A stretch of 64,000 bases of DNA from a virus (lineage: Duplodnaviria > Caudoviricetes), in IMG/VR virus record IMGVR_UViG_3300027759_000043; one strand, given 5' to 3'. The stretch's first letter is position 1, and every line of letters starts with the position of its first letter. The position numbers were made by a program, and so were the translations under genes. Under the pieces are notes generated by a model. It made no database searches. It was given only the letters and a program-made list of their open reading frames with translations, and had not been told where the DNA came from. This document shows, piece by piece, positions 7,661 through 62,656 of this stretch.

Positions 7661-9813
7661 TGGCTACACAAATCACCCCAGAAGAAATTGACGCGATTTT
7701 TAGACAGTTCAACAAAGAATTTAACACTCTTGGTTACGTGACTGAAGAAACGGCCGAAAAATTTAGAGAAGCCCAACTTGGTATCAAAAATTATACCACT
7801 GAACTGAACAAGAGTATAAAACTGCTGGGGCAAGCATCACTTAATCTAGTCACTGCTTTTGGTAAAGGTGAGCAAGGTGCATCGATTTATAACCAGAGTC
7901 TCACAGCAGGTGCAAACGCAATTGATTCTTTCGCTGCCAAATTTGGAATAATTGGCGCAGTTGTTGGTACATTGGCTACCTCTATTGCCAAATATGTAAC
8001 AGCAGTCAATGAACAGAGTGACAAGTTGTTTGGTACATATCAGCAACTTAGTAAAGTTGGTGCCGCAGGTGCTGGCGGTCTAAAAGAAGTATTTGATAAC
8101 CTACATCAATTTGGTTATACCTTAAAGGACCTGGATCAGTTTGCCAACAGCATCAAGGCCAATGCAGAAACTCTAGCCTTGTACAATGGCACGGTGAATC
8201 AAGGTACCAAGGCGTTTGCCCAAGTCACTCAAGGATTCAAAGACAGCGGACTACAAACACAGTTTCGCCTCATGGGTCTTTCAATTGCAGATATCAATCA
8301 AGGCATAGCAGGCTATCAACGTATACAAGTACTAAGTGGTTCAACACAACGCAAAACCACTGCAGAATTAGTGCAAGGATCTGCTGAATATATCAAGCAG
8401 TTGGACTTGATTGCCAAACTCACAGGCAAGAGTGCTGAATCAATTCAGGCCGAACAAGAAGCCAGACTACAAGAGTCTCGCTATGCTGTTACCAGGCTTG
8501 AACTACAAGACAAAGCAGATGCTGCCAAGGCGGTTGGAGATAAAGAAACAGCCAAACGTTTTACCGATACTATAGCGGCCATGGATCTCTTGCTGGCACA
8601 AGCACCTGATAAATTGAAATCTGGCATAACAGGCCTATTGACTGGATTTGTGGGATCCTCTAAAGAAAGCGAACAATTGTTTCGGGCTGCCAGTGGTGCC
8701 GCTACAGAATTACTGGGAGTAAAAAATAGAGGACTAACAATAGAGGAAGTTGGTCCTTTACTGGATCGATTCAAGAAAGAGGGAACATCTACAGTAAGAG
8801 GATTTACTGGCCAATATCAGTTCCAAGGCAGAGGCGATGAGATGTTTGGCCAAGCCGCTGGGTTACTGGGGATAGGTACAGAGAGAGCAAAGGCAGTCAA
8901 AGACGCCATTAACCAACAAAAAGATCAAACTACCAATATAGAAGACAGTGTGTTGGCACAAGTTCGCATGCGACAAGCACAAGAGTCAACAACTCGAAGC
9001 ATGGAAGCATTTAAAGATCTTGGCATCAAGCCAGTGACCAGTGCAATGGAAAATCTCAGCAGTGCTATTGACAAGGTTACTGAAGCAATTGTTCCTGGTA
9101 CCAGTGCGGCAGGCGGAAAGGCGTCCCCTAGCCGAGGTGGCAGTGGCGGCGGCTCTTCATCGTTGCTAGACATTATTGGACGAGGGGAAAGTGGTGGCAA
9201 CTACAATGCACTAGTAGGTGGTGGCGAGGCCAATCTTACTAACATGACCATTGCTGAAGTACAAAAGTTTCAAAGTACCATGCGAGCCCAAGGTCGTGCC
9301 AGTACAGCAGTTGGCAAGTATCAGATGATTGCTGCCACCCTGGCAGAGCAAGCAAAAAAAGCCGGACTAGATCCAAATACTACTAAATTTGATCAAAAAA
9401 CACAGGACTTGTTGGCATCACAATTGGTCAAGCAAGCAGGACTTGGCAGTAGAGATCCAGCAACTGTGATGAAAAATCTTGCTGGCACCTGGGCCAGTTT
9501 ACCGCAAAACATGTCAGGTCAAGGTCGTTACGATGGATACAATACTAATCGTGCCAATATTAATCCTAATGATTTAATGGCGGCTATACAAAGTGGCCCT
9601 AACGACCGTTATTCATCTGCATTGTCATCAATTGCGTCTCAGATTCCAAAATCTATGGCCCCGGGTACGGAGGCGACTTTTGCAGGTAACTTAGAACGTA
9701 GAAATTCTGATGACATGTTAAAAATAAGCATAGCAAAACAAGACGAAATGATTGCATTGTTAAAAGCCAACAATAGCCAAAATCAAAAGATGATTCAGGT
9801 CGCTCGCAACTAA
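7660..9813 (+). CDS. Tape-measure-like tail protein with C-terminal lysozyme/lytic transglycosylase domain
   Basis: Long Ala/Gln/Lys-rich helical region, GS linker, then LLDIIGRGESGGNYN...STAVGKYQMIAATL lysozyme-like motifs. Confidence 0.8.
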   Translation: MATQITPEEIDAIFRQFNKEFNTLGYVTEETAEKFREAQLGIKNYTTELNKSIKLLGQASLNLVTAFGKGEQGASIYNQSLTAGANAIDSFAAKFGIIGAVVGTLATSIAKYVTAVNEQSDKLFGTYQQLSKVGAAGAGGLKEVFDNLHQFGYTLKDLDQFANSIKANAETLALYNGTVNQGTKAFAQVTQGFKDSGLQTQFRLMGLSIADINQGIAGYQRIQVLSGSTQRKTTAELVQGSAEYIKQLDLIAKLTGKSAESIQAEQEARLQESRYAVTRLELQDKADAAKAVGDKETAKRFTDTIAAMDLLLAQAPDKLKSGITGLLTGFVGSSKESEQLFRAASGAATELLGVKNRGLTIEEVGPLLDRFKKEGTSTVRGFTGQYQFQGRGDEMFGQAAGLLGIGTERAKAVKDAINQQKDQTTNIEDSVLAQVRMRQAQESTTRSMEAFKDLGIKPVTSAMENLSSAIDKVTEAIVPGTSAAGGKASPSRGGSGGGSSSLLDIIGRGESGGNYNALVGGGEANLTNMTIAEVQKFQSTMRAQGRASTAVGKYQMIAATLAEQAKKAGLDPNTTKFDQKTQDLLASQLVKQAGLGSRDPATVMKNLAGTWASLPQNMSGQGRYDGYNTNRANINPNDLMAAIQSGPNDRYSSALSSIASQIPKSMAPGTEATFAGNLERRNSDDMLKISIAKQDEMIALLKANNSQNQKMIQVARN

Positions 9814-9829
9814 CGATAAATAATACACT

Positions 9830-11608
9830 ATGGCTTCTTGGAAAAAATATTTTAAAGTTGCTGATCTCTCAGGTCAGATGAGTCCTATTTCAGGCGGCAG
9901 AGATAGTGGCCTGCCTGGATATCCCAAAAATGATGGTCGCGGATCAAACCCGGCGCAGACAGATTTTGCGTTTCGTAACTATGCGTCGCGCTTGCCCGAA
10001 GTGTATTCTGGACACCCCAACCGAATTGAACGCTACAATCAATATGAGAACATGGATGCTGACTCTGAAGTCAACGCCTGTTTAGACATCATTGCTGAGT
10101 TTTCCACACAACTCAATGAAGACAACAACACCCCATTTGAAATCAAGTATTCAGATGAACCTACTGATCATGAAATTGAAATTATCCGTAAGCAAATGCA
10201 ACAGTGGGTCAAACTCAACAAACTAGATCAGCGTATCTTCAAACTGTTCCGCAACACCATCAAGTACGGAGATCAAATTTTTGTTCGTGACCCAGAAACA
10301 TTTGAAATGTACTGGGTAGACATGAGTAAACTCAGTAGAGTTATTGTAAACGAGTCAGAAGGCAAGAGACCTGAGCAGTACATTATTCGTGACATCAACC
10401 CCAACTTCCAGAATCTAACAGTGGCTGCAAAGACCACAACAGACTTCATGGTCAACCCGCCCACAGGTGGTGGCTACCAGCAAGGCGGCGGATATACTCA
10501 GCCAAATACTGCTATGACAGGAACCAGTAGATTCAGTCGTGCTGTAAACGAAACCTGTATTGATGCCAAGCACGTGGTGCATATGAGTCTAAACGAAGGT
10601 TTAGACACATTTTGGCCATTTGGCAAAAGCATTTTGGAAAACATTTTCAAAGTATTCAAACAAAAAGAATTACTAGAAGATGCGCTATTAATCTATCGTG
10701 TGCAACGTGCGCCTGAGCGCAGAGTATTTAAAATTGACGTGGGCAACATGCCAAGTCACTTGGCCATGCAGTTTGTAGAGCGTGTAAAAAACGAAATGCA
10801 TCAGCGTAGAATCCCCACATTTGGCGGTGGTGGCGGCAACATCATGGATTCAAGTTATAATCCACTATCAATCAACGAAGACTTCTTCTTTCCCACAGGC
10901 GCAGACGGACGTGGATCAAGTGTAGACGTGTTGCCCGGCGGTCAAAATCTGGGCGAAATTGACGATTTAAAGTATTTTAACAACAAAATGGCTCGTGGTT
11001 TACGTGTACCCAGCAGTTACCTGCCCACTGCCCCTGATGACTCGGAGCGCACAATGCAGGATGGTAAAGTGGGCACAGCACTGATTCAAGAGTATAGATT
11101 CAACCAGTATTGTGAGCGTTTGCAAGCACTTATTATGCAGAAACTGGATGATGAATTCAAGATGTTCCTGCGTTGGAGAGGCTTTAATATTGATGCTGGC
11201 CTGTTCCAACTCAAGTTTAATCCACCACAAAACTTTGCAAGTTATCGTCAAGCCGAGATGGATACGTCACGTATCAGTAGTTTTACTAGCCTAGAACAGT
11301 TGCCTTACATGAGCAAGCGTTTTATGTTAGAGCGTTTCTTGGGATTGAGCAAGGACGAAATTGAACAAAACGAAAAAATGTGGCGTGAAGAACGTGACAA
11401 ACCTGAACTACAAACCACACAAGGACAGGATCTACGCAGTATTGGTATTACTCCAGCAGGCATGGAAACTGATATTGCCACAGGCGAAGAAATGGCCAAT
11501 CTACAAGCACCCGGTGCAGAAGGTGGCTTACCGGCCGCCCCTGCTGGCGGCGTAGGTGGTACATTACCAGGTGCAGGGGCACCAGCGGCAGCGCCAGCAG
11601 GATTATAA
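9830..11608 (+). CDS. gp20: Portal protein (T4 gp20 family)
   Basis: LLEDALLIYRVQRAPERRVFKIDVGNMP, EDFFFP, LPGGQNLGEIDDLKYF. Confidence 0.97.
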   Translation: MASWKKYFKVADLSGQMSPISGGRDSGLPGYPKNDGRGSNPAQTDFAFRNYASRLPEVYSGHPNRIERYNQYENMDADSEVNACLDIIAEFSTQLNEDNNTPFEIKYSDEPTDHEIEIIRKQMQQWVKLNKLDQRIFKLFRNTIKYGDQIFVRDPETFEMYWVDMSKLSRVIVNESEGKRPEQYIIRDINPNFQNLTVAAKTTTDFMVNPPTGGGYQQGGGYTQPNTAMTGTSRFSRAVNETCIDAKHVVHMSLNEGLDTFWPFGKSILENIFKVFKQKELLEDALLIYRVQRAPERRVFKIDVGNMPSHLAMQFVERVKNEMHQRRIPTFGGGGGNIMDSSYNPLSINEDFFFPTGADGRGSSVDVLPGGQNLGEIDDLKYFNNKMARGLRVPSSYLPTAPDDSERTMQDGKVGTALIQEYRFNQYCERLQALIMQKLDDEFKMFLRWRGFNIDAGLFQLKFNPPQNFASYRQAEMDTSRISSFTSLEQLPYMSKRFMLERFLGLSKDEIEQNEKMWREERDKPELQTTQGQDLRSIGITPAGMETDIATGEEMANLQAPGAEGGLPAAPAGGVGGTLPGAGAPAAAPAGL

Positions 11609-11611
11609 ATA
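11604..11611 (+). promoter_or_regulatory. T4-type late promoter TATAAATA
   Basis: Perfect T4 late consensus containing the portal stop codon, 4 nt before ATG 11616. Confidence 0.8.
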
Positions 11612-11615
11612 CAGT

Positions 11616-11834
11616 ATGATCCTGAATGAAATTTACGACCGAGCACCAGCAGGCTACCAAGATGTTGCAGCCGACAACACCCAGCCTCATCTGGGACAAC
11701 TGCGTAAAACCAAACTCACTCTCAAGCAGTTGAACAAACTGCGCAGAATGCAAGATACTCGCACTTACGAATATGGTGAAAAACTCAAACTGATCCGCAA
11801 ACAGTATGCACCGCCAGCACAGCCTGCGATGTAA
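11616..11834 (+). CDS. Small head-region protein (72 aa)
   Basis: MILNEIY... start directly behind the late promoter; basic helical C-half. Confidence 0.75.
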   Translation: MILNEIYDRAPAGYQDVAADNTQPHLGQLRKTKLTLKQLNKLRRMQDTRTYEYGEKLKLIRKQYAPPAQPAM

Positions 11835-11955
11835 AAAAACTGTCATTTATTGCAAAAAATCCACCATAAACCGCTAAGTTTTTGCCTTTAAAGTAAATAT
11901 AGGTATAGATCTGCCATGCGGGCAGAACTACCCAACACACCTATAGGAGTTATAA

Positions 11956-15861: not shown

Positions 15862-16962
15862 ATGATATTAGTTAATGACCCTTATGATTTGATTCCAGAA
15901 CTGTTTGAAAACTTTTCTGAGTTTACTAAATCGATCAGGTCTGATGTTGATGTGCTACCAACTTTGTGCCCAGAAAGTTTTCAACAGTCAGAAAAACTAA
16001 CTATTTTAATACAACCTGAACCTACTATACATTGTGTTGATCAGATCTATATTAAACAAATTGCAAGTAAAACTAATGCCGTGTGGGCAGTAAGTGGGCA
16101 CGGAAAAATAGATAATTGGAAATTATCCCAATGGTTTGAATATTTTTCAAATCTCACAAGTACTGTAAGAGTCAATTCTGAATTACCAGCATTGGATCTA
16201 GGACATAAACCTTGCCTGGCGACAGCATTATTAGGAGGGTGGATGTATAACCGAGGACTACTATTAAAAGGATTAAAACAACAAGGATTAATTGATCAGT
16301 GTTTAGTAAACTATTACGAACGATCTCAAGAATCAATGGATCGTAGAAATCAACTACGGCTCCAACATCCTGACCTATATTTTAATATGAGGACACCAAT
16401 ATTATATCAAATTGATAATCCTGAATTTCAAAGCATAGCGTTTGACGATGAAACTTCAGGAAAATCACAATCGACAACAATAAACACATGTCGACCAATC
16501 CCAAACATGCGACCTTACCAGCACGGTTGGGTTAGTCAATTGATTCCTAGAAATATTTACAATTCAGCCTATATCAGCATAGTTGCTGAAACTGAAACTG
16601 TGGTAGCACCGGATACTTTTTTTATCAGCGAAAAGATCACTAGGCCGTTGTTGGTAGGACATCCGTTTGTGGTATTTGGTTGTACAGGATACTTACAATG
16701 TTTGCGTGATTTGGGTTTTCAAACATTCTCACCTTGGTTGGACGAAACATACGATCTTGTGACAGATACTGACAAACGTATAGACGCTATTGTTGACAGC
16801 GTTAAACAATTTTCACAGTTAAATGATTCTCAACGTCAACAGGCCTGTTTAGAAATGCAACCAGTAATTGAACACAATCGTAAGTTGGTAAAAGATCAGC
16901 GTTGGGGGTTTGGTCCAATTGCCAATGCAATCAAACACCACTTAAATTTTAAACCAGCCTAA
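15862..16962 (+). CDS. Glycosyltransferase-like hypothetical protein
   Basis: ATG 4 nt after TAAGTA; C-terminal ISEKITRPLLVGHPFVVFG...LRDLGFQTF, shared with 44939-45931 and reminiscent of GT10/exostosin-like domains. Confidence 0.55.
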   Translation: MILVNDPYDLIPELFENFSEFTKSIRSDVDVLPTLCPESFQQSEKLTILIQPEPTIHCVDQIYIKQIASKTNAVWAVSGHGKIDNWKLSQWFEYFSNLTSTVRVNSELPALDLGHKPCLATALLGGWMYNRGLLLKGLKQQGLIDQCLVNYYERSQESMDRRNQLRLQHPDLYFNMRTPILYQIDNPEFQSIAFDDETSGKSQSTTINTCRPIPNMRPYQHGWVSQLIPRNIYNSAYISIVAETETVVAPDTFFISEKITRPLLVGHPFVVFGCTGYLQCLRDLGFQTFSPWLDETYDLVTDTDKRIDAIVDSVKQFSQLNDSQRQQACLEMQPVIEHNRKLVKDQRWGFGPIANAIKHHLNFKPA

Positions 16963-18099
16963 GAACTTTTCAATCTTGGTCATTGGTGCTAACCAATCGC
17001 CATATTTTTCCTGACGGAATAGTCGAGCGGTAGTATACCAAGGTGAGTCATCACGATTTTGCATCCAGCGCCAGCATGGACCATAAGCATTGAGTGGAAT
17101 CCAAAGTGGACGGCCCATAGCACCTGCTAGGTGTGCGGCCGCCGTGTCTACAGAGATCACAAGATCCAAATGGTGCATTAATGCGGCTGTGTCAGCAAAG
17201 TCATTGATAGTGCCAGGATAACACTCTACACCTGCGGCCTTGATCACTGCTTCATCTTCAGGCAATGCATCAACTTGCAAACTAACCCATTGGTGTTCAG
17301 GAAACTTCCGCACAAGAGCAGCCATGGTTTCTGCTGGCATGCTCTTGTGTTGATTGATCCAGGAATCTTTGCGACCTGACCAAGCAACACCGATTCTCAT
17401 GCGATTTTTAGGAATACCTAGTCTTTCGGCCCATACTTTAACACGTTCTGGTTCAGGTTGCACATACTGCAAATAGTGTTGAACATTTTCTAACTTCATG
17501 TTTAACAGTCTAGGCAGGCTCATCATGGCCACCCAGTAGTCAAATTCGCCGATTACATCTTCTGTGTTGCAGGTTATGCCCACAATTGCTGGAGGAGTAT
17601 TGATCAACAAAGGTTTAATGCCCGGACTCACGTGGAGTCTAATCTTTGCACCCATGTCTTGAAGATTACCACAGAATCTCAAGAACTGAATCTGATCACC
17701 AAGTCCTTGTTCGCCAATGACCAGGATAGTTTTTCCGCGTAGATCCTCGCCTGACCATTCAGGACTAGGTAGTCGGGGCTTGGTTCCATCTAGGTGCTCA
17801 TAACGCCAGCGACTTTCGTACAGTCGCCAACCCTGTTCATAGTTGCCTAGCATGAGATGCGCCACCGCTAGATTAAATTCTGCTGTGACACTAGTGGGAT
17901 CTAATAGGCGTGCTGTTTCTAAAAATGGAATAGCACGTTGTGCATGACCCATCTCTCTCAGTACATTGCCATAGTTGTTAAAGGCACCCGAACTGTTGGG
18001 ATCTTGCACAAATGCTTGTGCATAAAATGCAATGGCCTGTTCGGGGTTGTGTTTTTCTCTGGCCAGGTTACCGCTGGCAATCAAGTCTTCAGTGTTCAT
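16942..18099 (-). CDS. TPR-repeat glycosyltransferase (GT9-like C-terminal domain)
   Basis: N-terminal TPRs (AFNNYGNVLREMG, AEFNLAVAHL), EQGLGDQIQFLRF, LDLVISVDTAAAHLAGAMG; ATG 5 nt after TAAATA. Confidence 0.85.
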   Translation of the reverse strand: MNTEDLIASGNLAREKHNPEQAIAFYAQAFVQDPNSSGAFNNYGNVLREMGHAQRAIPFLETARLLDPTSVTAEFNLAVAHLMLGNYEQGWRLYESRWRYEHLDGTKPRLPSPEWSGEDLRGKTILVIGEQGLGDQIQFLRFCGNLQDMGAKIRLHVSPGIKPLLINTPPAIVGITCNTEDVIGEFDYWVAMMSLPRLLNMKLENVQHYLQYVQPEPERVKVWAERLGIPKNRMRIGVAWSGRKDSWINQHKSMPAETMAALVRKFPEHQWVSLQVDALPEDEAVIKAAGVECYPGTINDFADTAALMHHLDLVISVDTAAAHLAGAMGRPLWIPLNAYGPCWRWMQNRDDSPWYTTARLFRQEKYGDWLAPMTKIEKFLGWFKI

Positions 18100-18161
18100 A
18101 GTGATATTTAAGAAAACCGTCATGTTGGCTAAAATAAACCAATTGTCCATAAATACTAGTC

Positions 18162-18239
18162 AACGCAATTCTGCGTTTTATGCGGCGATTAATACCCACC
18201 GCGTAGCGGCTAGAACCCGCATGGGGCTTCTTTAAGGAG
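18162..18239 (+). promoter_or_regulatory. Structured 5' leader (candidate cis-regulatory RNA)
   Basis: Stems AACGCA/TGCGTT, ATGCGG/CCGCAT, CCGC-GTA-GCGG, and CTTCT-TTA-AGGAG covering the SD; follows TAAATA at 18150-18155. Confidence 0.55.
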
Positions 18240-18246
18240 AAATCAA

Positions 18247-19074
18247 ATGGGAAGAGCACTTAAAATTCAAAAAAACAACGTTGGTTCTGGATCTACTGTA
18301 ACCGGTACACCTCCAGTAACAACATACAACCAAACCATCTTAACTGATGCTGGTTTTCCAAACTTTGGTAGTTTGACCTCACCGGCAACTCCATATAACT
18401 CAGCCGACACACTCAATTCAGATCAGTTTGTGGGCGTGGTTGGTGGTTCACCCGCTACTAGTACTCCTAGTGCTACGTTTCCTGAAGTGTTGGCAGCAGT
18501 CAATATCAGTTTAGCAGATGGCACAAGCACCACTGCCGGCGCTGGACGTTTGATCCGCCAGAAAGGTGCGCACAAGTTCTTGGTTGCTTACACAGCCAGT
18601 ACCACTGCTGACGAAAGTTTAATTATTGGTCAAGCATATCAAATTGCTGTACTTGGCACAACTGACTGGCAGGCTTGCGGTGGTGGTGCTGATTCGGCAG
18701 TTGGTGATATATTTACGGCTGTAGCAGTTGGATCAGGAACAGGTACTGCGTACCCAGTTGGTCAATGTGTGTTGTCAAACACAGGCTCACCAACAGCCGG
18801 TAACATGAGTATTGAATATTCAGTAGGCGACTCGGCCGCTGTGTATGCCAGTTACATCACTAACAAGTGGATCCGTGACTGGAACGGCATGACTTATGGC
18901 AACTACAGCAACAGCAATGATGGCGAAAACATTTACTCAAGTGAAAACTTCTATGTAACCAACTTCTTCACAGACGAAGGCACAGTCACATGGTCCGGTG
19001 CAGAGATCATCAACGGTGTAGACGCAAACAACGGTTCATTACAGTTGGCTCAAGTGGTCAACGTTACAAGTTAA
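18247..19074 (+). CDS. Putative virion structural protein
   Basis: Strong AAGGAG SD, own late promoter and terminator, G/S/T/A-rich beta-type composition. Confidence 0.7.
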   Translation: MGRALKIQKNNVGSGSTVTGTPPVTTYNQTILTDAGFPNFGSLTSPATPYNSADTLNSDQFVGVVGGSPATSTPSATFPEVLAAVNISLADGTSTTAGAGRLIRQKGAHKFLVAYTASTTADESLIIGQAYQIAVLGTTDWQACGGGADSAVGDIFTAVAVGSGTGTAYPVGQCVLSNTGSPTAGNMSIEYSVGDSAAVYASYITNKWIRDWNGMTYGNYSNSNDGENIYSSENFYVTNFFTDEGTVTWSGAEIINGVDANNGSLQLAQVVNVTS

Positions 19075-19090
19075 TTTGTAACACCCTAAC

Positions 19091-19122
19091 ATCCCCCTTG
19101 CTAACTACAAGGGGGATTTTTT
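19091..19122 (+). terminator. Rho-independent terminator
   Basis: ATCCCCCTTG-CTAACTA-CAAGGGGGAT 10-bp stem followed by a T-tract. Confidence 0.88.
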
Positions 19123-19710
19123 ATGACTAGAGCATTTGTGTGTGGCAATGGCATTAGCCGGCAAGCAGTAGATTTAATTCAATTAAAAACATTAGGCAAG
19201 ATATACGGCTGTAACGGACTCTACAGAGATTTTGAGCCCGACTGTCTCGTGGCCACAGACAAACCCATTGCTGAAAGTATACAAAAGTCTGGGTACAGTG
19301 CCACACATAGATTTCATACCCGCAAACCCATACACAAATTAGGTGCCTTACCTGTGCCCAAAAAGTATCACAGCAACAGTTCAGGGCCTATTGCTGTTGC
19401 TCTTGCAGCCTTGGACCAGCATCAAACTGTGTATATGTTGGGCTTTGACATGGGGCCTACTGTGAATCAAAAGTTCAATAATGTGTATGCTGGCACAGAT
19501 TTTTACAAAAAACAAGATGCCGCGCCCACATACACCGGCAATTGGGTAAAACAATTGTGTACTATTGTACGGGATTTCCCTCATATAACATTCGTACGAG
19601 TGTGTGGAGCAACCACAGCAGACATCCGAGAACTAAAAGTCTTTAACAATCTCCTACACATACCCATGCAGATGTTTCAAGATCGTGTGTCAACGGGTCA
19701 AGATCTCTAG
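19123..19710 (+). CDS. Hypothetical protein (MptE/DUF115 or GT29-like Rossmann fold)
   Basis: AFVCGNGISR, YGCNGLYRDFEPDCLVATD, SSGPIAV, YMLGFD pattern. Confidence 0.55.
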   Translation: MTRAFVCGNGISRQAVDLIQLKTLGKIYGCNGLYRDFEPDCLVATDKPIAESIQKSGYSATHRFHTRKPIHKLGALPVPKKYHSNSSGPIAVALAALDQHQTVYMLGFDMGPTVNQKFNNVYAGTDFYKKQDAAPTYTGNWVKQLCTIVRDFPHITFVRVCGATTADIRELKVFNNLLHIPMQMFQDRVSTGQDL

Positions 19711-53145: not shown

Positions 53146-53176
53146 CCTACACCGTTGAGTTTGCGGTAAATATGGC

Positions 53177-53662
53177 ATGACCCGCAAACTAGAAGAACTT
53201 TTTGATTTACCCCCAAACGACAGCCCTGAGCCAGAGTCTGTTTCTTCTATTGAAGAAACACGCACCTACATTGCTGAAATAGACCATGCACTTGACAAGA
53301 TAGATGCGGCCCTACCGGGTGTGCGTGATCTCAGTGCCAGCGACGTTGAGATGGATGATTTGGCAGCCAAAGCAACCAAGAGTTTTGATGACCTAATGGA
53401 TTTAGGTTTTAACGTAGATTCAAGATTTGCCGCAGAAATCTTTGGCGTAGCCGGCACAATGTTGGGCCATGCACTCACAGCCAAGACAGCCAAACTGAAC
53501 AAAAAACTAAAAGTGATTGATCTACAGTTGAAAAAAGCACGACTGGATCAACAAAACCCTGACGATGCACCCACACAGACAGGCCAAGGCCATGTGCTGG
53601 ACCGCAACGAAATCTTGGAACGCTTGATTGGTGATAGAAGAACAATCGTGAAAAAAGAATAA
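53177..53662 (+). CDS. Possible small terminase subunit (gp16-like)
   Basis: 161 aa, helical core and short C-terminal beta/helix tail as in gp16; late promoter; positional and pattern inference only. Confidence 0.45.
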   Translation: MTRKLEELFDLPPNDSPEPESVSSIEETRTYIAEIDHALDKIDAALPGVRDLSASDVEMDDLAAKATKSFDDLMDLGFNVDSRFAAEIFGVAGTMLGHALTAKTAKLNKKLKVIDLQLKKARLDQQNPDDAPTQTGQGHVLDRNEILERLIGDRRTIVKKE

Positions 53663-60342: not shown

Positions 60343-61077
60343 ATGCAACATTGCTATCATAACTATTCTGCTTATGCCAATCTATTATTGAATTGGGTAG
60401 GAACTGACCAACAACATAATCTTAGAGCAAAACTAGACCCGTCGTTTAGACCTACCTGGCTAGAATCTGGTTGGGCAGACGATAATGTGATCGAATATCA
60501 ATTCAACAGTGGTGGTTTTAGAACAGACGAGTTTGATCAATCCAAAAGAATCTTGATCTTAGGCTCAAGCCCCACAGTTGGTGTAGGGCTACATCGATCA
60601 CAAACATGGTCTGAATTGTTGAGTAAAAAAATCAATCAACCTGTTTGGAATTTGGCCACTGGTACAGGCTGTTCTGATACTATGTATAGGGTATGTAAAA
60701 ATTATATTTCGCAACTGAACATAAGCATGGTCATTGAACTTGGCGGAGAGAAAGATGCTTTTGAGATATACTTTCAAAATCATTGGCAAATAATCAACAG
60801 TCCTGAATATGATGCTATCTCGTCATTGAAAAGTTTGGTACATTCATGGTATTCAGACACGGAAAATTTAAAAATAAATCAAGAAAAAAATACCGCCGCT
60901 ATGAAATGGATTTGTCATGAAAATCAAGTGCCTTATTATAAATTTTCTTTAAGTGAAATACAAATGAAGTACTATGACATGATAGGTCAATCTGACTGCT
61001 CTCGATGTGGTCATCATGCAGGCCCAAAATTTCACACGGCGGCTGCAGATTATATTGCCGATCATATAATTTTGTAA
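60343..61077 (+). CDS. SGNH-hydrolase-like hypothetical protein
   Basis: ILILGSSPTVGVG, WNLATGTG, C-terminal HHAGP; AT-rich. Confidence 0.55.
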   Translation: MQHCYHNYSAYANLLLNWVGTDQQHNLRAKLDPSFRPTWLESGWADDNVIEYQFNSGGFRTDEFDQSKRILILGSSPTVGVGLHRSQTWSELLSKKINQPVWNLATGTGCSDTMYRVCKNYISQLNISMVIELGGEKDAFEIYFQNHWQIINSPEYDAISSLKSLVHSWYSDTENLKINQEKNTAAMKWICHENQVPYYKFSLSEIQMKYYDMIGQSDCSRCGHHAGPKFHTAAADYIADHIIL

Positions 61078-61084
61078 ATACTAG

Positions 61085-62656
61085 ATGACCAAAACACTAG
61101 AAGGCGTACTGGTCAAAGCACCATACCGACGCCAAACGTTCTCTGATGATCAACTGCAGGAGTTTCTTGCCTGTGCCGATCCTCAAGACGGTCCTCACTA
61201 CTTTTTAGATCACTTCTTTTACATACAGCACCCCACACAGGGCAAGATGTTGTATCATCCGTTTTCTTATCAAAAGCGACTGATCGACACTTACCACAAC
61301 AACCGCTATAGCATAAGCATGATGCCGCGACAAACCGGCAAGTCCACATCAGCGGCTGGCTACATTCTCTGGTACGCCATGTTTGTGCCTGATTCCACTA
61401 TCCTTATTGCCGCACACAAGTACACAGGTGCCCAAGAGATCATGCAACGTATTCGCTTTGCTTATGAACTGTGCCCAGATCATATTCGAGCAGGTGTCAC
61501 CAGTTACAACAAAGGCTCCATAGACTTTGAAAACGGATCAAGAATTGTGTCAGCCACAACAACCGAAACAACTGGTCGTGGTATGAGTATTACTTTGCTG
61601 TACGCTGACGAGTTTGCGTTTGTGCGGCCCACTATTGCTACTGAGTTTTGGACCAGTATCTCCCCTACACTGGCCACAGGTGGTAAGGCCATTATCACAA
61701 GTACCCCCAACTCAGACGAAGATCAGTTTGCACTAATCTGGAAAGGTGCCAACAAGTGCATAGACGAGTTTGGCAACCCAACTGAACTGGGCATGAATGG
61801 ATTCCGAGCATTTAGAAGTTACTGGCAAGAGCACCCGGACCGTGACGAAGCCTGGGGTGAGAACATGCGGGCACAACTGGGTGATGATCGTTTCCGTCGA
61901 GAGATTGGTTGTGAGTTCATTATCAATGATGAAACACTTATTGCCCCGGCCAAGTTACTAGATTTAGAAAGTCGTGATCCTTGGAAACGTACAGGACATG
62001 TGCGTTGGTACGAAGCAATCAAACCCGACAGCATTTATGTTGTGGCACTAGACCCGTCATTAGGCACCGGAGGTGACCCTGCGGCCATACAGATATTTGA
62101 AGCCAACACCACACGTCAAGTGGGCGAGTGGACACACAACCGCACACCCATTCCAGAACAGATACGCATACTGTCGGACATCTGTAAGTACATCAACGAA
62201 ACTGTGCAAAACGACAAGAACATCTACTACAGCATCGAAAACAACACCATTGGCGAAGCAGGCTTGATCTCTATTGCAGAATTTGGTGAAGAAAACATAC
62301 AGGGTTACTTTTTGTCAGATCCACACATGAGCGGTAGTAACAGACGTATGCGCAAGGGCTTTAATACCACGCACAAAAGCAAACTGAGTGCCTGTGCCAA
62401 AGTTAAAAATCTAATAGAAACCAATAGAATGACTGTACACAGTGCGGCCTTGATAAGTGAACTCAAGACCTTTGTGGCTTCGGGCTTGAGTTTTGCCGCA
62501 AAAATAGGCGAAACAGATGACCTTGTGATGAGCATGCTATTAGCGGTGCGTATGATGCAGGTTTTACAGAGTTTTTATACAGAACTAGACAGTCAAATGA
62601 AGGATCACATGGACAACATAATTGAACCCATGCCTTTTATCTCTGTGATGCACTAA
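61085..62656 (+). CDS. gp17: Terminase large subunit (T4 gp17 family)
   Basis: PRQTGKS Walker A, LLYADEFAF Walker B, ITSTPN, ALDPSLG, DDLVMS. Confidence 0.97.
   Translation: MTKTLEGVLVKAPYRRQTFSDDQLQEFLACADPQDGPHYFLDHFFYIQHPTQGKMLYHPFSYQKRLIDTYHNNRYSISMMPRQTGKSTSAAGYILWYAMFVPDSTILIAAHKYTGAQEIMQRIRFAYELCPDHIRAGVTSYNKGSIDFENGSRIVSATTTETTGRGMSITLLYADEFAFVRPTIATEFWTSISPTLATGGKAIITSTPNSDEDQFALIWKGANKCIDEFGNPTELGMNGFRAFRSYWQEHPDRDEAWGENMRAQLGDDRFRREIGCEFIINDETLIAPAKLLDLESRDPWKRTGHVRWYEAIKPDSIYVVALDPSLGTGGDPAAIQIFEANTTRQVGEWTHNRTPIPEQIRILSDICKYINETVQNDKNIYYSIENNTIGEAGLISIAEFGEENIQGYFLSDPHMSGSNRRMRKGFNTTHKSKLSACAKVKNLIETNRMTVHSAALISELKTFVASGLSFAAKIGETDDLVMSMLLAVRMMQVLQSFYTELDSQMKDHMDNIIEPMPFISVMH

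Follow-up and report, generated by a model that had tools for sequence, protein, structure and literature searches.

The leader at 18161-18249 of the 64,000-nt window (by which we mean the whole stretch of DNA that was analysed) is a copy of an already catalogued RNA motif, freshwater-2, and not a new class of RNA. Its carrier is an uncultured freshwater T4-like giant phage. Comparison with related leaders supports an RNA that is conserved, structured and placed in cis in front of one gene family, and, judged from the alignments, this RNA has a single conserved fold, not two. On the same comparative grounds, the mechanism proposed in the initial annotation, a bistable switch coupled to a hairpin that hides the Shine-Dalgarno sequence (SD), is refuted. 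The sequence evidence makes it most likely that the freshwater-2 leader is a protein-bound translational operator acting in cis. Taken as a whole, the best explanation is a late-mRNA freshwater-2 leader with one fold, serving as a candidate protein operator on initiation, and to this we give a probability of about one half. The features of the locus are collected in Table 1.

Table 1. Coordinates of the freshwater-2 leader, its parts and the neighbouring genes in the window
Feature	Position	Strand	Remarks
TPR + GT9-like glycosyltransferase gene	16942..18150	-	Pfam TPR families and PF01075; divergent, start codon overlaps the late box
T4-type late-promoter-like box, CATAAATA	18148..18155	+	predicted transcription start ~18161
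Freshwater-2 RNA, RF02980	18161..18249	+	full model, 1-84 of 84; score 69.4 bits, gathering cut-off 49.9; E 1.6e-8 (whole-window scan)
P1 hairpin	18162..18177	+	6 bp, 4-nt loop; 18162-67 pairs with 18172-77; one base past the predicted 5' end
P2 hairpin	18179..18205	+	18179-85 pairs with 18199-205, including a conserved U.G; loop 18186-98
3' end of P2 loop, CCCA, candidate pseudoknot strand	18195..18198	+	complementary to UGGG 18248-51
P3 hairpin	18206..18220	+	18206-09 pairs with 18217-20; 4-bp stem; 7-nt loop CUAGAAC, six positions conserved
Linker with pyrimidine tract CUUCU (18227-31)	18221..18233	+	tract kept in part of the family only
Shine-Dalgarno AAGGAG	18234..18239	+	AAGGAG or AGGAG in 118/136 listed relatives, followed by an A-rich spacer
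Late gene, 275 aa, starts MGRALK	18247..19074	+	ORF behind the leader
Intrinsic-terminator-like hairpin and T run	19091..19122	+	10-bp stem, 6 of its pairs GC; five T follow
Sialyltransferase/Maf-like gene, 195 aa	19123..19710	+	phrog_30607 3e-34, phrog_4603 8e-5

Identity and transcription unit of the leader

RF02980 (freshwater-2, type Cis-reg) is the only Rfam family matched anywhere in the window, and the match is full-length and above the curated cut-off. The initial annotation had recognised no known riboswitch class in this leader; the Rfam search places it in a catalogued RNA family. Family membership is apparent also from the three consecutive hairpins, which carry compensatory changes among relatives, and from the placement in cis, directly upstream of the SD and start codon, where the distance from the end of P3 to the AUG is 26 nt here and 14-29 nt in nearly all listed relatives. 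Set beside the Rfam entry, the leader has the same three hairpins, the same conserved words and the same place before SD and AUG, with no structural difference; what is added here to freshwater-2 is its T4-like carriers of up to ~330 kb, the late-promoter box and the one downstream protein family. The folding energy of the leader, taken alone, is within chance (z = -1.56, with 17 of 200 shuffles folding equally well), so that its reality rests on the Rfam match and on covariation and not on folding energy. We take the motif to stem from a comparative screen published by Weinberg et al. in 2017. The main text of that screen (PMC5737381) does not name freshwater-2.

The TAAATA at 18150-55, after which the initial annotation had placed its leader, is part of the octamer CATAAATA and not a gene end. 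TAAATA stands upstream in 131 of the 132 listed relatives, and P1 usually starts 5-9 nt past it. In T4, transcription begins about six bases past the late-promoter box. Six bases past the box found here is 18161, and the predicted 5' end of the RNA thus coincides with the start of the RF02980 match; we infer that transcription starts at about 18161, one base before P1. The T4 late promoter itself is TATAAATA (PMC3014915). The leader is unusually long, as had been remarked in the initial annotation: it has ~86 nt, against the 4-25 nt that lie between the late-type box and the start codon for most other ORFs in the window that carry NNTAAATA. Among these, NNTAAATA boxes stand 4-7 nt before the ATG of long ORFs at 7647-7662, 9815-9832, 11604-11618, 53165-53179 and 61073-61087 on the plus strand, and likewise at 42392-42376 on the minus strand; if transcription starts about 6 nt past the box as in T4, the late mRNAs concerned would have little or no leader and could not accommodate an SD. 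A second longish late leader (11900-11955, plus strand) extends for 56 nt after AGTAAATA and precedes a 275-aa ORF without a PHROG match; it holds a 6-bp GC hairpin, and its folding energy is within that of shuffles (z -1.3).

The gene behind the freshwater-2 leader does stand alone, as had been claimed for it, with the upstream gene on the minus strand and a terminator-like hairpin downstream, starting 17 nt past the end of the 18247-19074 ORF. With a promoter box and a terminator to itself, the leader gene is a self-contained unit. The terminator hairpin abuts the ATG at 19123 of the Maf/sialyltransferase-like gene (window 19091-19125). This gene has no late box before it, and the only SD-like sequence available to it is the G-rich 3' arm of the terminator hairpin; it may be made only by terminator read-through, in a low ratio to the upstream protein.

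Relatives of the leader and their common fold

An exact 22-mer from P2-P3 was found in 43 IMG/VR contigs, and a degenerate pattern in which one P2 pair and all of the P3 stem could vary was found in at least 120; together the two gave at least 137 distinct leaders. A further pattern added members whose second codon is GCN, after which the set held at least 180 distinct members. The pattern also gave 53 matches in bacterial and archaeal genomes (596 Gb, 185,579 species genomes), of which 50 are chance matches, with no P3 pairing, no late box and no start codon, and 3 are real. The three genuine copies are on MAG contigs (54-183 kb), in a Haliscomenobacter bin (L190, L207) and in the 'Rickettsiales' bin MED657 (L205); these copies are probably mis-binned phage DNA, and give a weak host hint at best. 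For cultured phages, neither the leader (blastn) nor two proteins of the family (tblastn) had a match in 50,697 phage records, and RF02980 was not found in Sinorhizobium phage Phosso or Agrobacterium phage Atu_ph07. One relative has a tRNA gene (L329:5682-5751, minus strand; Rfam 32.5 bits) ~60 nt upstream of its freshwater-2 leader and on the opposite strand.

All three hairpins are well represented among these relatives. P1 is predicted to fold at -6.0 kcal/mol with a pairing probability of 0.98; 127 of 132 listed relatives have a predicted P1 hairpin with 4 bp or more, in 116 different sequences, many of them fully compensated, and P1 is absent from a few listed members. P2, with a predicted pairing probability of 0.987 in the window sequence, abuts P3 directly. 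The P2 stem is almost invariant, which is partly by construction, as is the invariance of the words GCGUA and UAGAAC, because the search patterns fixed 6 of the 7 P2 pairs together with those words; the P3 stem is variable and has a conserved loop. The P2 pair that was left free covaries (G:C 69, U:A 27, A:U 22, zero mismatches in the alignment of 129 leaders), and in P3 all four pairs covary; 34 different P3 stems occur, and pairing is complete in 127 of 137 listed members. In the alignment of 129 leaders (118 distinct) from which the statistics for P2+P3, for Fold A and for the SD hairpin were taken, 98.8% of the P2+P3 cells are paired, and the covariation score is 0.470 compared with 0.087 for shuffled alignments (none of 500 scored as high) and with no more than 0.056 for slid partners. 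P2+P3 is the Rfam fold, and it is also one of the two structures, Fold B, drawn in the initial annotation, which had named covariation among homologous leaders as a check; the Fold B stems are indeed conserved and covarying.

Members recovered via the capsid gene show small departures only (a CUGAAAC loop; P3 stems of 3 or 5 bp), and in two members from a looser pattern the U.G of P2 is replaced by C-G. The GCGUA and UAGAAC loop and junction bases are near-constant in all members that were detected without fixing those words. The flanks and coding sequences of the relatives diverge, down to <40% protein identity, and constancy of the loop and junction bases amid such divergence argues for a specific ligand. 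The RNA is assigned to the plus strand because the P2 U.G would become an A-C mismatch on the other strand.

Every string on which the initial annotation relied is present where it was placed, including AACGCA at 18162-67 and TGCGTT at 18173-78, but the predicted P1 pairs run from 18162-67 to 18172-77. From such strings it had derived a cis-regulatory switch, with two mutually exclusive folds (A, in which 18180-85 pairs with 18217-22 around the CCGC-GTA-GCGG of 18199-209, and B), an SD-occluding hairpin formed by CUUCU and AGGAG (18227-39), and an AGAA in the P3 loop (18212-15) that could compete for UUCU. What survives of this is the conserved, structured leader in cis, which Rfam types as Cis-reg; the bistability does not survive. 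In a bistable switch or attenuator, two exclusive helices should both be conserved, and here the alternative helices are unformable in most members. Fold A has 65.5% of its cells paired, compared with 65.0% after shuffling, and a covariation score of 0.079, compared with 0.070; of 137 listed members, 34 are able to form it, and only 7 of these are among the 94 in which P3 differs from GCGG/CCGC. Even in the window sequence, Fold A is predicted at -16.0 kcal/mol against -19.3 for the Rfam fold, 3.3 weaker, and its pairs have <1% predicted probability against 98.7% for P2. Similarly, an SD-sequestering hairpin should show an anti-SD strand that is conserved and covaries with the SD. The CUNCU tract is present in 72 of 136 scorable listed members; 88.7% of lettered cells in the CUNCU/AGGAG hairpin are paired, and its covariation score of 0.053 matches the 0.051 of shuffled alignments, which speaks against this hairpin as a feature of the family. 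Its predicted probability in the window sequence is 0.33. Competition by AGAA fares no better, as the linker tract is missing or reads CUACU in more than half of the family and the P3 loop is invariant.

Two other candidates were tried and rejected. The 7-nt loop of P3 is without the T-loop signature that tRNA-like mimicry would call for, and the GGG of the linker, which could pair with the CCC of the P2 loop, is clade-specific (elsewhere there is CGGA, AGGA or no such linker).

The linked gene and its neighbourhood

All 180 listed leader members precede a single protein family, whose members start MG or MA and then R. The ORFs are of 116-512 aa, with a common N-terminal module that includes an I-x-x-Q-K/R-G-x-x-x-F core, and with variable C-terminal parts. 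For the product of 18247-19074 no Pfam or PHROG family was found, and its 1170 homologues are all unnamed. AF2 models reached a pLDDT of 79.5 for the window protein and 82.5 for another; comparison with PDB folds gave no clear relative, none being above Z 5.5, and the BFVD matches of a leader-linked protein are uncharacterised phage proteins only. The N-terminal SH3-like barrel is a generic resemblance to small barrels (Z 4.0 for the FeoA/DtxR-type SH3, Z 5.5 for Tudor/KOW-type barrels), and the downstream protein has no recognisable RNA-binding family. One leader-linked protein (L127:990-2111, minus strand) has a C-terminal GLEYA/PA14 carbohydrate-binding domain (5e-13), in keeping with a conserved module that would anchor the protein and with variable ends that would face outwards. 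In the MGRP clade (e.g. L005, L012 and L045), the nucleotides of codons 2-4 are themselves conserved and form a palindromic 8-mer, GGACGUCC, at the positions where the window clade reads GGAAGAGC; selection on the RNA may extend into the first codons of the leader-linked ORF.

In the window, the capsid gene belongs to the gp23 type (PF07068, 1e-97), and among named relatives the closest by DNA are jumbo myoviruses. In the family at large, the leader-linked gene usually comes directly after such a capsid gene, with a glycosyltransferase-like gene on either side: among 162 listed motif loci, a gp23-type capsid gene is found within the short locus at 110, the TPR-GT9 gene at 56 and the sialyltransferase/Maf-like gene at 85. 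A comparison unbiased to the motif is provided by 28 loci that were fetched via the capsid gene and have enough downstream DNA, 7 of which have the strict motif. Of the 21 that do not, 17 lack any homologue of the leader-linked protein, and these 17 have neither glycosyltransferase-like gene, with one partial exception; an Rfam scan of 10 of them found no freshwater-2. The other 4 have a homologue of the protein, 3 of them with a variant motif, and Rfam detects the RNA in both of the two that were scanned. At capsid-anchored loci, the leader RNA and its gene are thus nearly always present or absent together. Judged by this pattern of occurrence, RNA and gene are an accessory cassette, usually accompanied by two glycosyltransferase-like genes, and the most economical reading is that the product would be a dispensable, surface-exposed, possibly glycosylated virion protein.

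In close relatives, with capsid proteins 82-99% identical, the TPR-GT9 gene, the leader with its MGR-protein gene and the Maf-like gene (16942-19710 in the window) occur or are missing as a set downstream of the capsid gene, as a comparison of loci L332, L340, L344, L350 and L353 with L321, L346, L354-L356 and L360-L385 shows.

A candidate operator on translation initiation

The 3' end of the P2 loop is complementary to the start-codon region, and the two vary together to some extent. Among listed members, those with AUGGG have a CCC loop in 109 of 133 cases and GCC in none, and those with AUGGC have GCC in 16 of 46 and CCC in 8 of 46. In an alignment of 147 leaders, 81 distinct sequences have C:G at the covarying pair and 16 have G:C, and 0 of 500 shuffles match the double changes. 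The four-pair helix of loop and start region is 81% paired, with about a fifth of cells unpaired, and only one of its pairs covaries. The +4 base is G in every member, and the viral and metagenome collections held no member with A or U at +5 and none with a base other than G at +4. The capsid-protein tree gives only 7 supported independent contrasts and that of the downstream protein only 5; the loop changes in the predicted direction in ~2-5 of them and almost never in the opposite one (median p 0.125-0.5, not significant). A 4-bp match also arises with about half of the shuffled loops. The structure line of RF02980 does not show this pairing. We consider it suggestive and not proven, at about even odds, that the P2 loop pairs with the start-codon region.

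In the explanation that we prefer, the late-promoter box would start the transcript one base before P1, and P1, P2, P3, a short linker, a strong SD and the AUG would follow in succession. A protein, either the product of the gene itself, for which the strict co-occurrence of RNA and gene is indirect evidence, or another phage protein, would bind the leader. Once bound or folded, the leader would have the 3' end of its P2 loop seated on the U and G of the start codon and on the next two bases, and control would then run towards a start codon held closed while the SD stays free. P1 would probably also shield the 5' end of the mRNA. The near-constant bases of P2-P3, their closeness to the AUG and the one linked protein family together point to a specific binding site for the control of initiation, and a P3-AUG distance of 14-29 nt is within reach of a bound 30S subunit.

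A competing notion, which we hold to be unlikely, is a passive expression element, in which P1 and P2-P3 would stabilise the mRNA and keep the SD and spacer unstructured, with no ligand and no switching. Bacterial mRNAs can be stabilised by 5'-terminal stem-loops, as in the ompA leader, and P1 lies one base past the predicted 5' end; the strong SD, the conserved A-rich spacer and the position of a self-contained late unit beside the capsid gene, which would suit a virion protein made in abundance, are of a piece with this. A stabiliser needs pairing only, yet it is the loop and junction bases and the P2 stem that are near-constant, while the stems of P1 and P3 drift. Moreover, P1 is absent from a few members, and the co-variation of loop and start codon is left unexplained. 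A small-molecule riboswitch, in which the P2/P3 core would be a ligand pocket and the ligand would set the loop/start-codon pseudoknot, is improbable. The compactness of the RNA, its highly conserved bases and the possible pseudoknot at the initiation site recall the SAM-II and preQ1 classes, which are small translational riboswitches of similar architecture. However, the sole associated gene encodes a non-enzymatic, probably structural phage protein, and not a transporter or biosynthetic enzyme; each of the five contigs checked (175-328 kb) carries exactly one copy; and the Rfam type is only Cis-reg, with no ligand suggesting itself.

Far less probable is that the RNA is not a cis element of the downstream gene at all, and instead is a trans-acting small RNA, a protein site at the DNA level or the leader of the minus-strand gene. 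The region is a divergent intergenic one, and the start codon of the minus-strand gene overlaps the late box. Against this, the G.U pairs and the covariation fit the plus strand only, no terminator separates P3 from the SD, only a short stretch of constrained length leads to the AUG, and in many relatives it is the capsid gene, and not the divergent gene, that lies upstream. Finally, a bistable leader alternating between Fold A and Fold B and coupled to an SD-hiding hairpin is hardly credible: the window sequence and its close clade do allow both folds to be drawn, as well as a pairing of CUUCU with AGGAG, but Fold A stays at the shuffled level and is <1% occupied here, and the SD hairpin is absent from nearly half of the family.

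The rpsO operator of E. coli acts by ribosome entrapment. There, a leader pseudoknot at the translation initiation region mediates autogenous control by S15 (cited in PMC3014915). The likeness of freshwater-2 to rpsO is one of logic only and not of membership, as the two have no common sequence or fold and the downstream protein is not ribosomal. In T4 itself, the gene 32 leader pseudoknot and the gene 43 hairpin operator are structured leaders bound near the ribosome-binding site by the product of their own gene (PMC3014915). Those are early or middle replication genes, whereas here a late gene beside the capsid gene is concerned, and the fold is unrelated; the gene 32 pseudoknot, moreover, lies 67 nt upstream, where it nucleates cooperative binding, and does not touch the AUG. 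T4 late genes of the gene e and gene 25 type have local hairpins at their initiation regions (PMC3014915, section 29), and these are the idea behind the SD-occluding hairpin of the initial annotation, but the SD-pairing tract is unconserved in the freshwater-2 family.

Freshwater-2 has so far been an orphan, a name from metagenomes for which we found no paper in the searchable literature, under either freshwater-2 or RF02980. It can now be approached as a testable system, with T4-like giant-phage carriers, a late promoter, one protein family beside the capsid gene and a single fold, which perhaps includes the start-codon pairing should the pseudoknot prove to exist. A still more specific version of the operator reading, doubtful as it stands, is that freshwater-2 is the autogenous operator of virion-surface proteins of giant phages, working by trapping at the start codon in the manner of S15 and rpsO: unassembled protein would bind the P2-P3 core and lock the P2 loop onto the start codon. 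If this were true, synthesis of a probably glycosylated capsid-decoration protein would be matched to capsid assembly, and freshwater-2 would be the first late-gene operator in T4-like phages to act by clamping the start codon.
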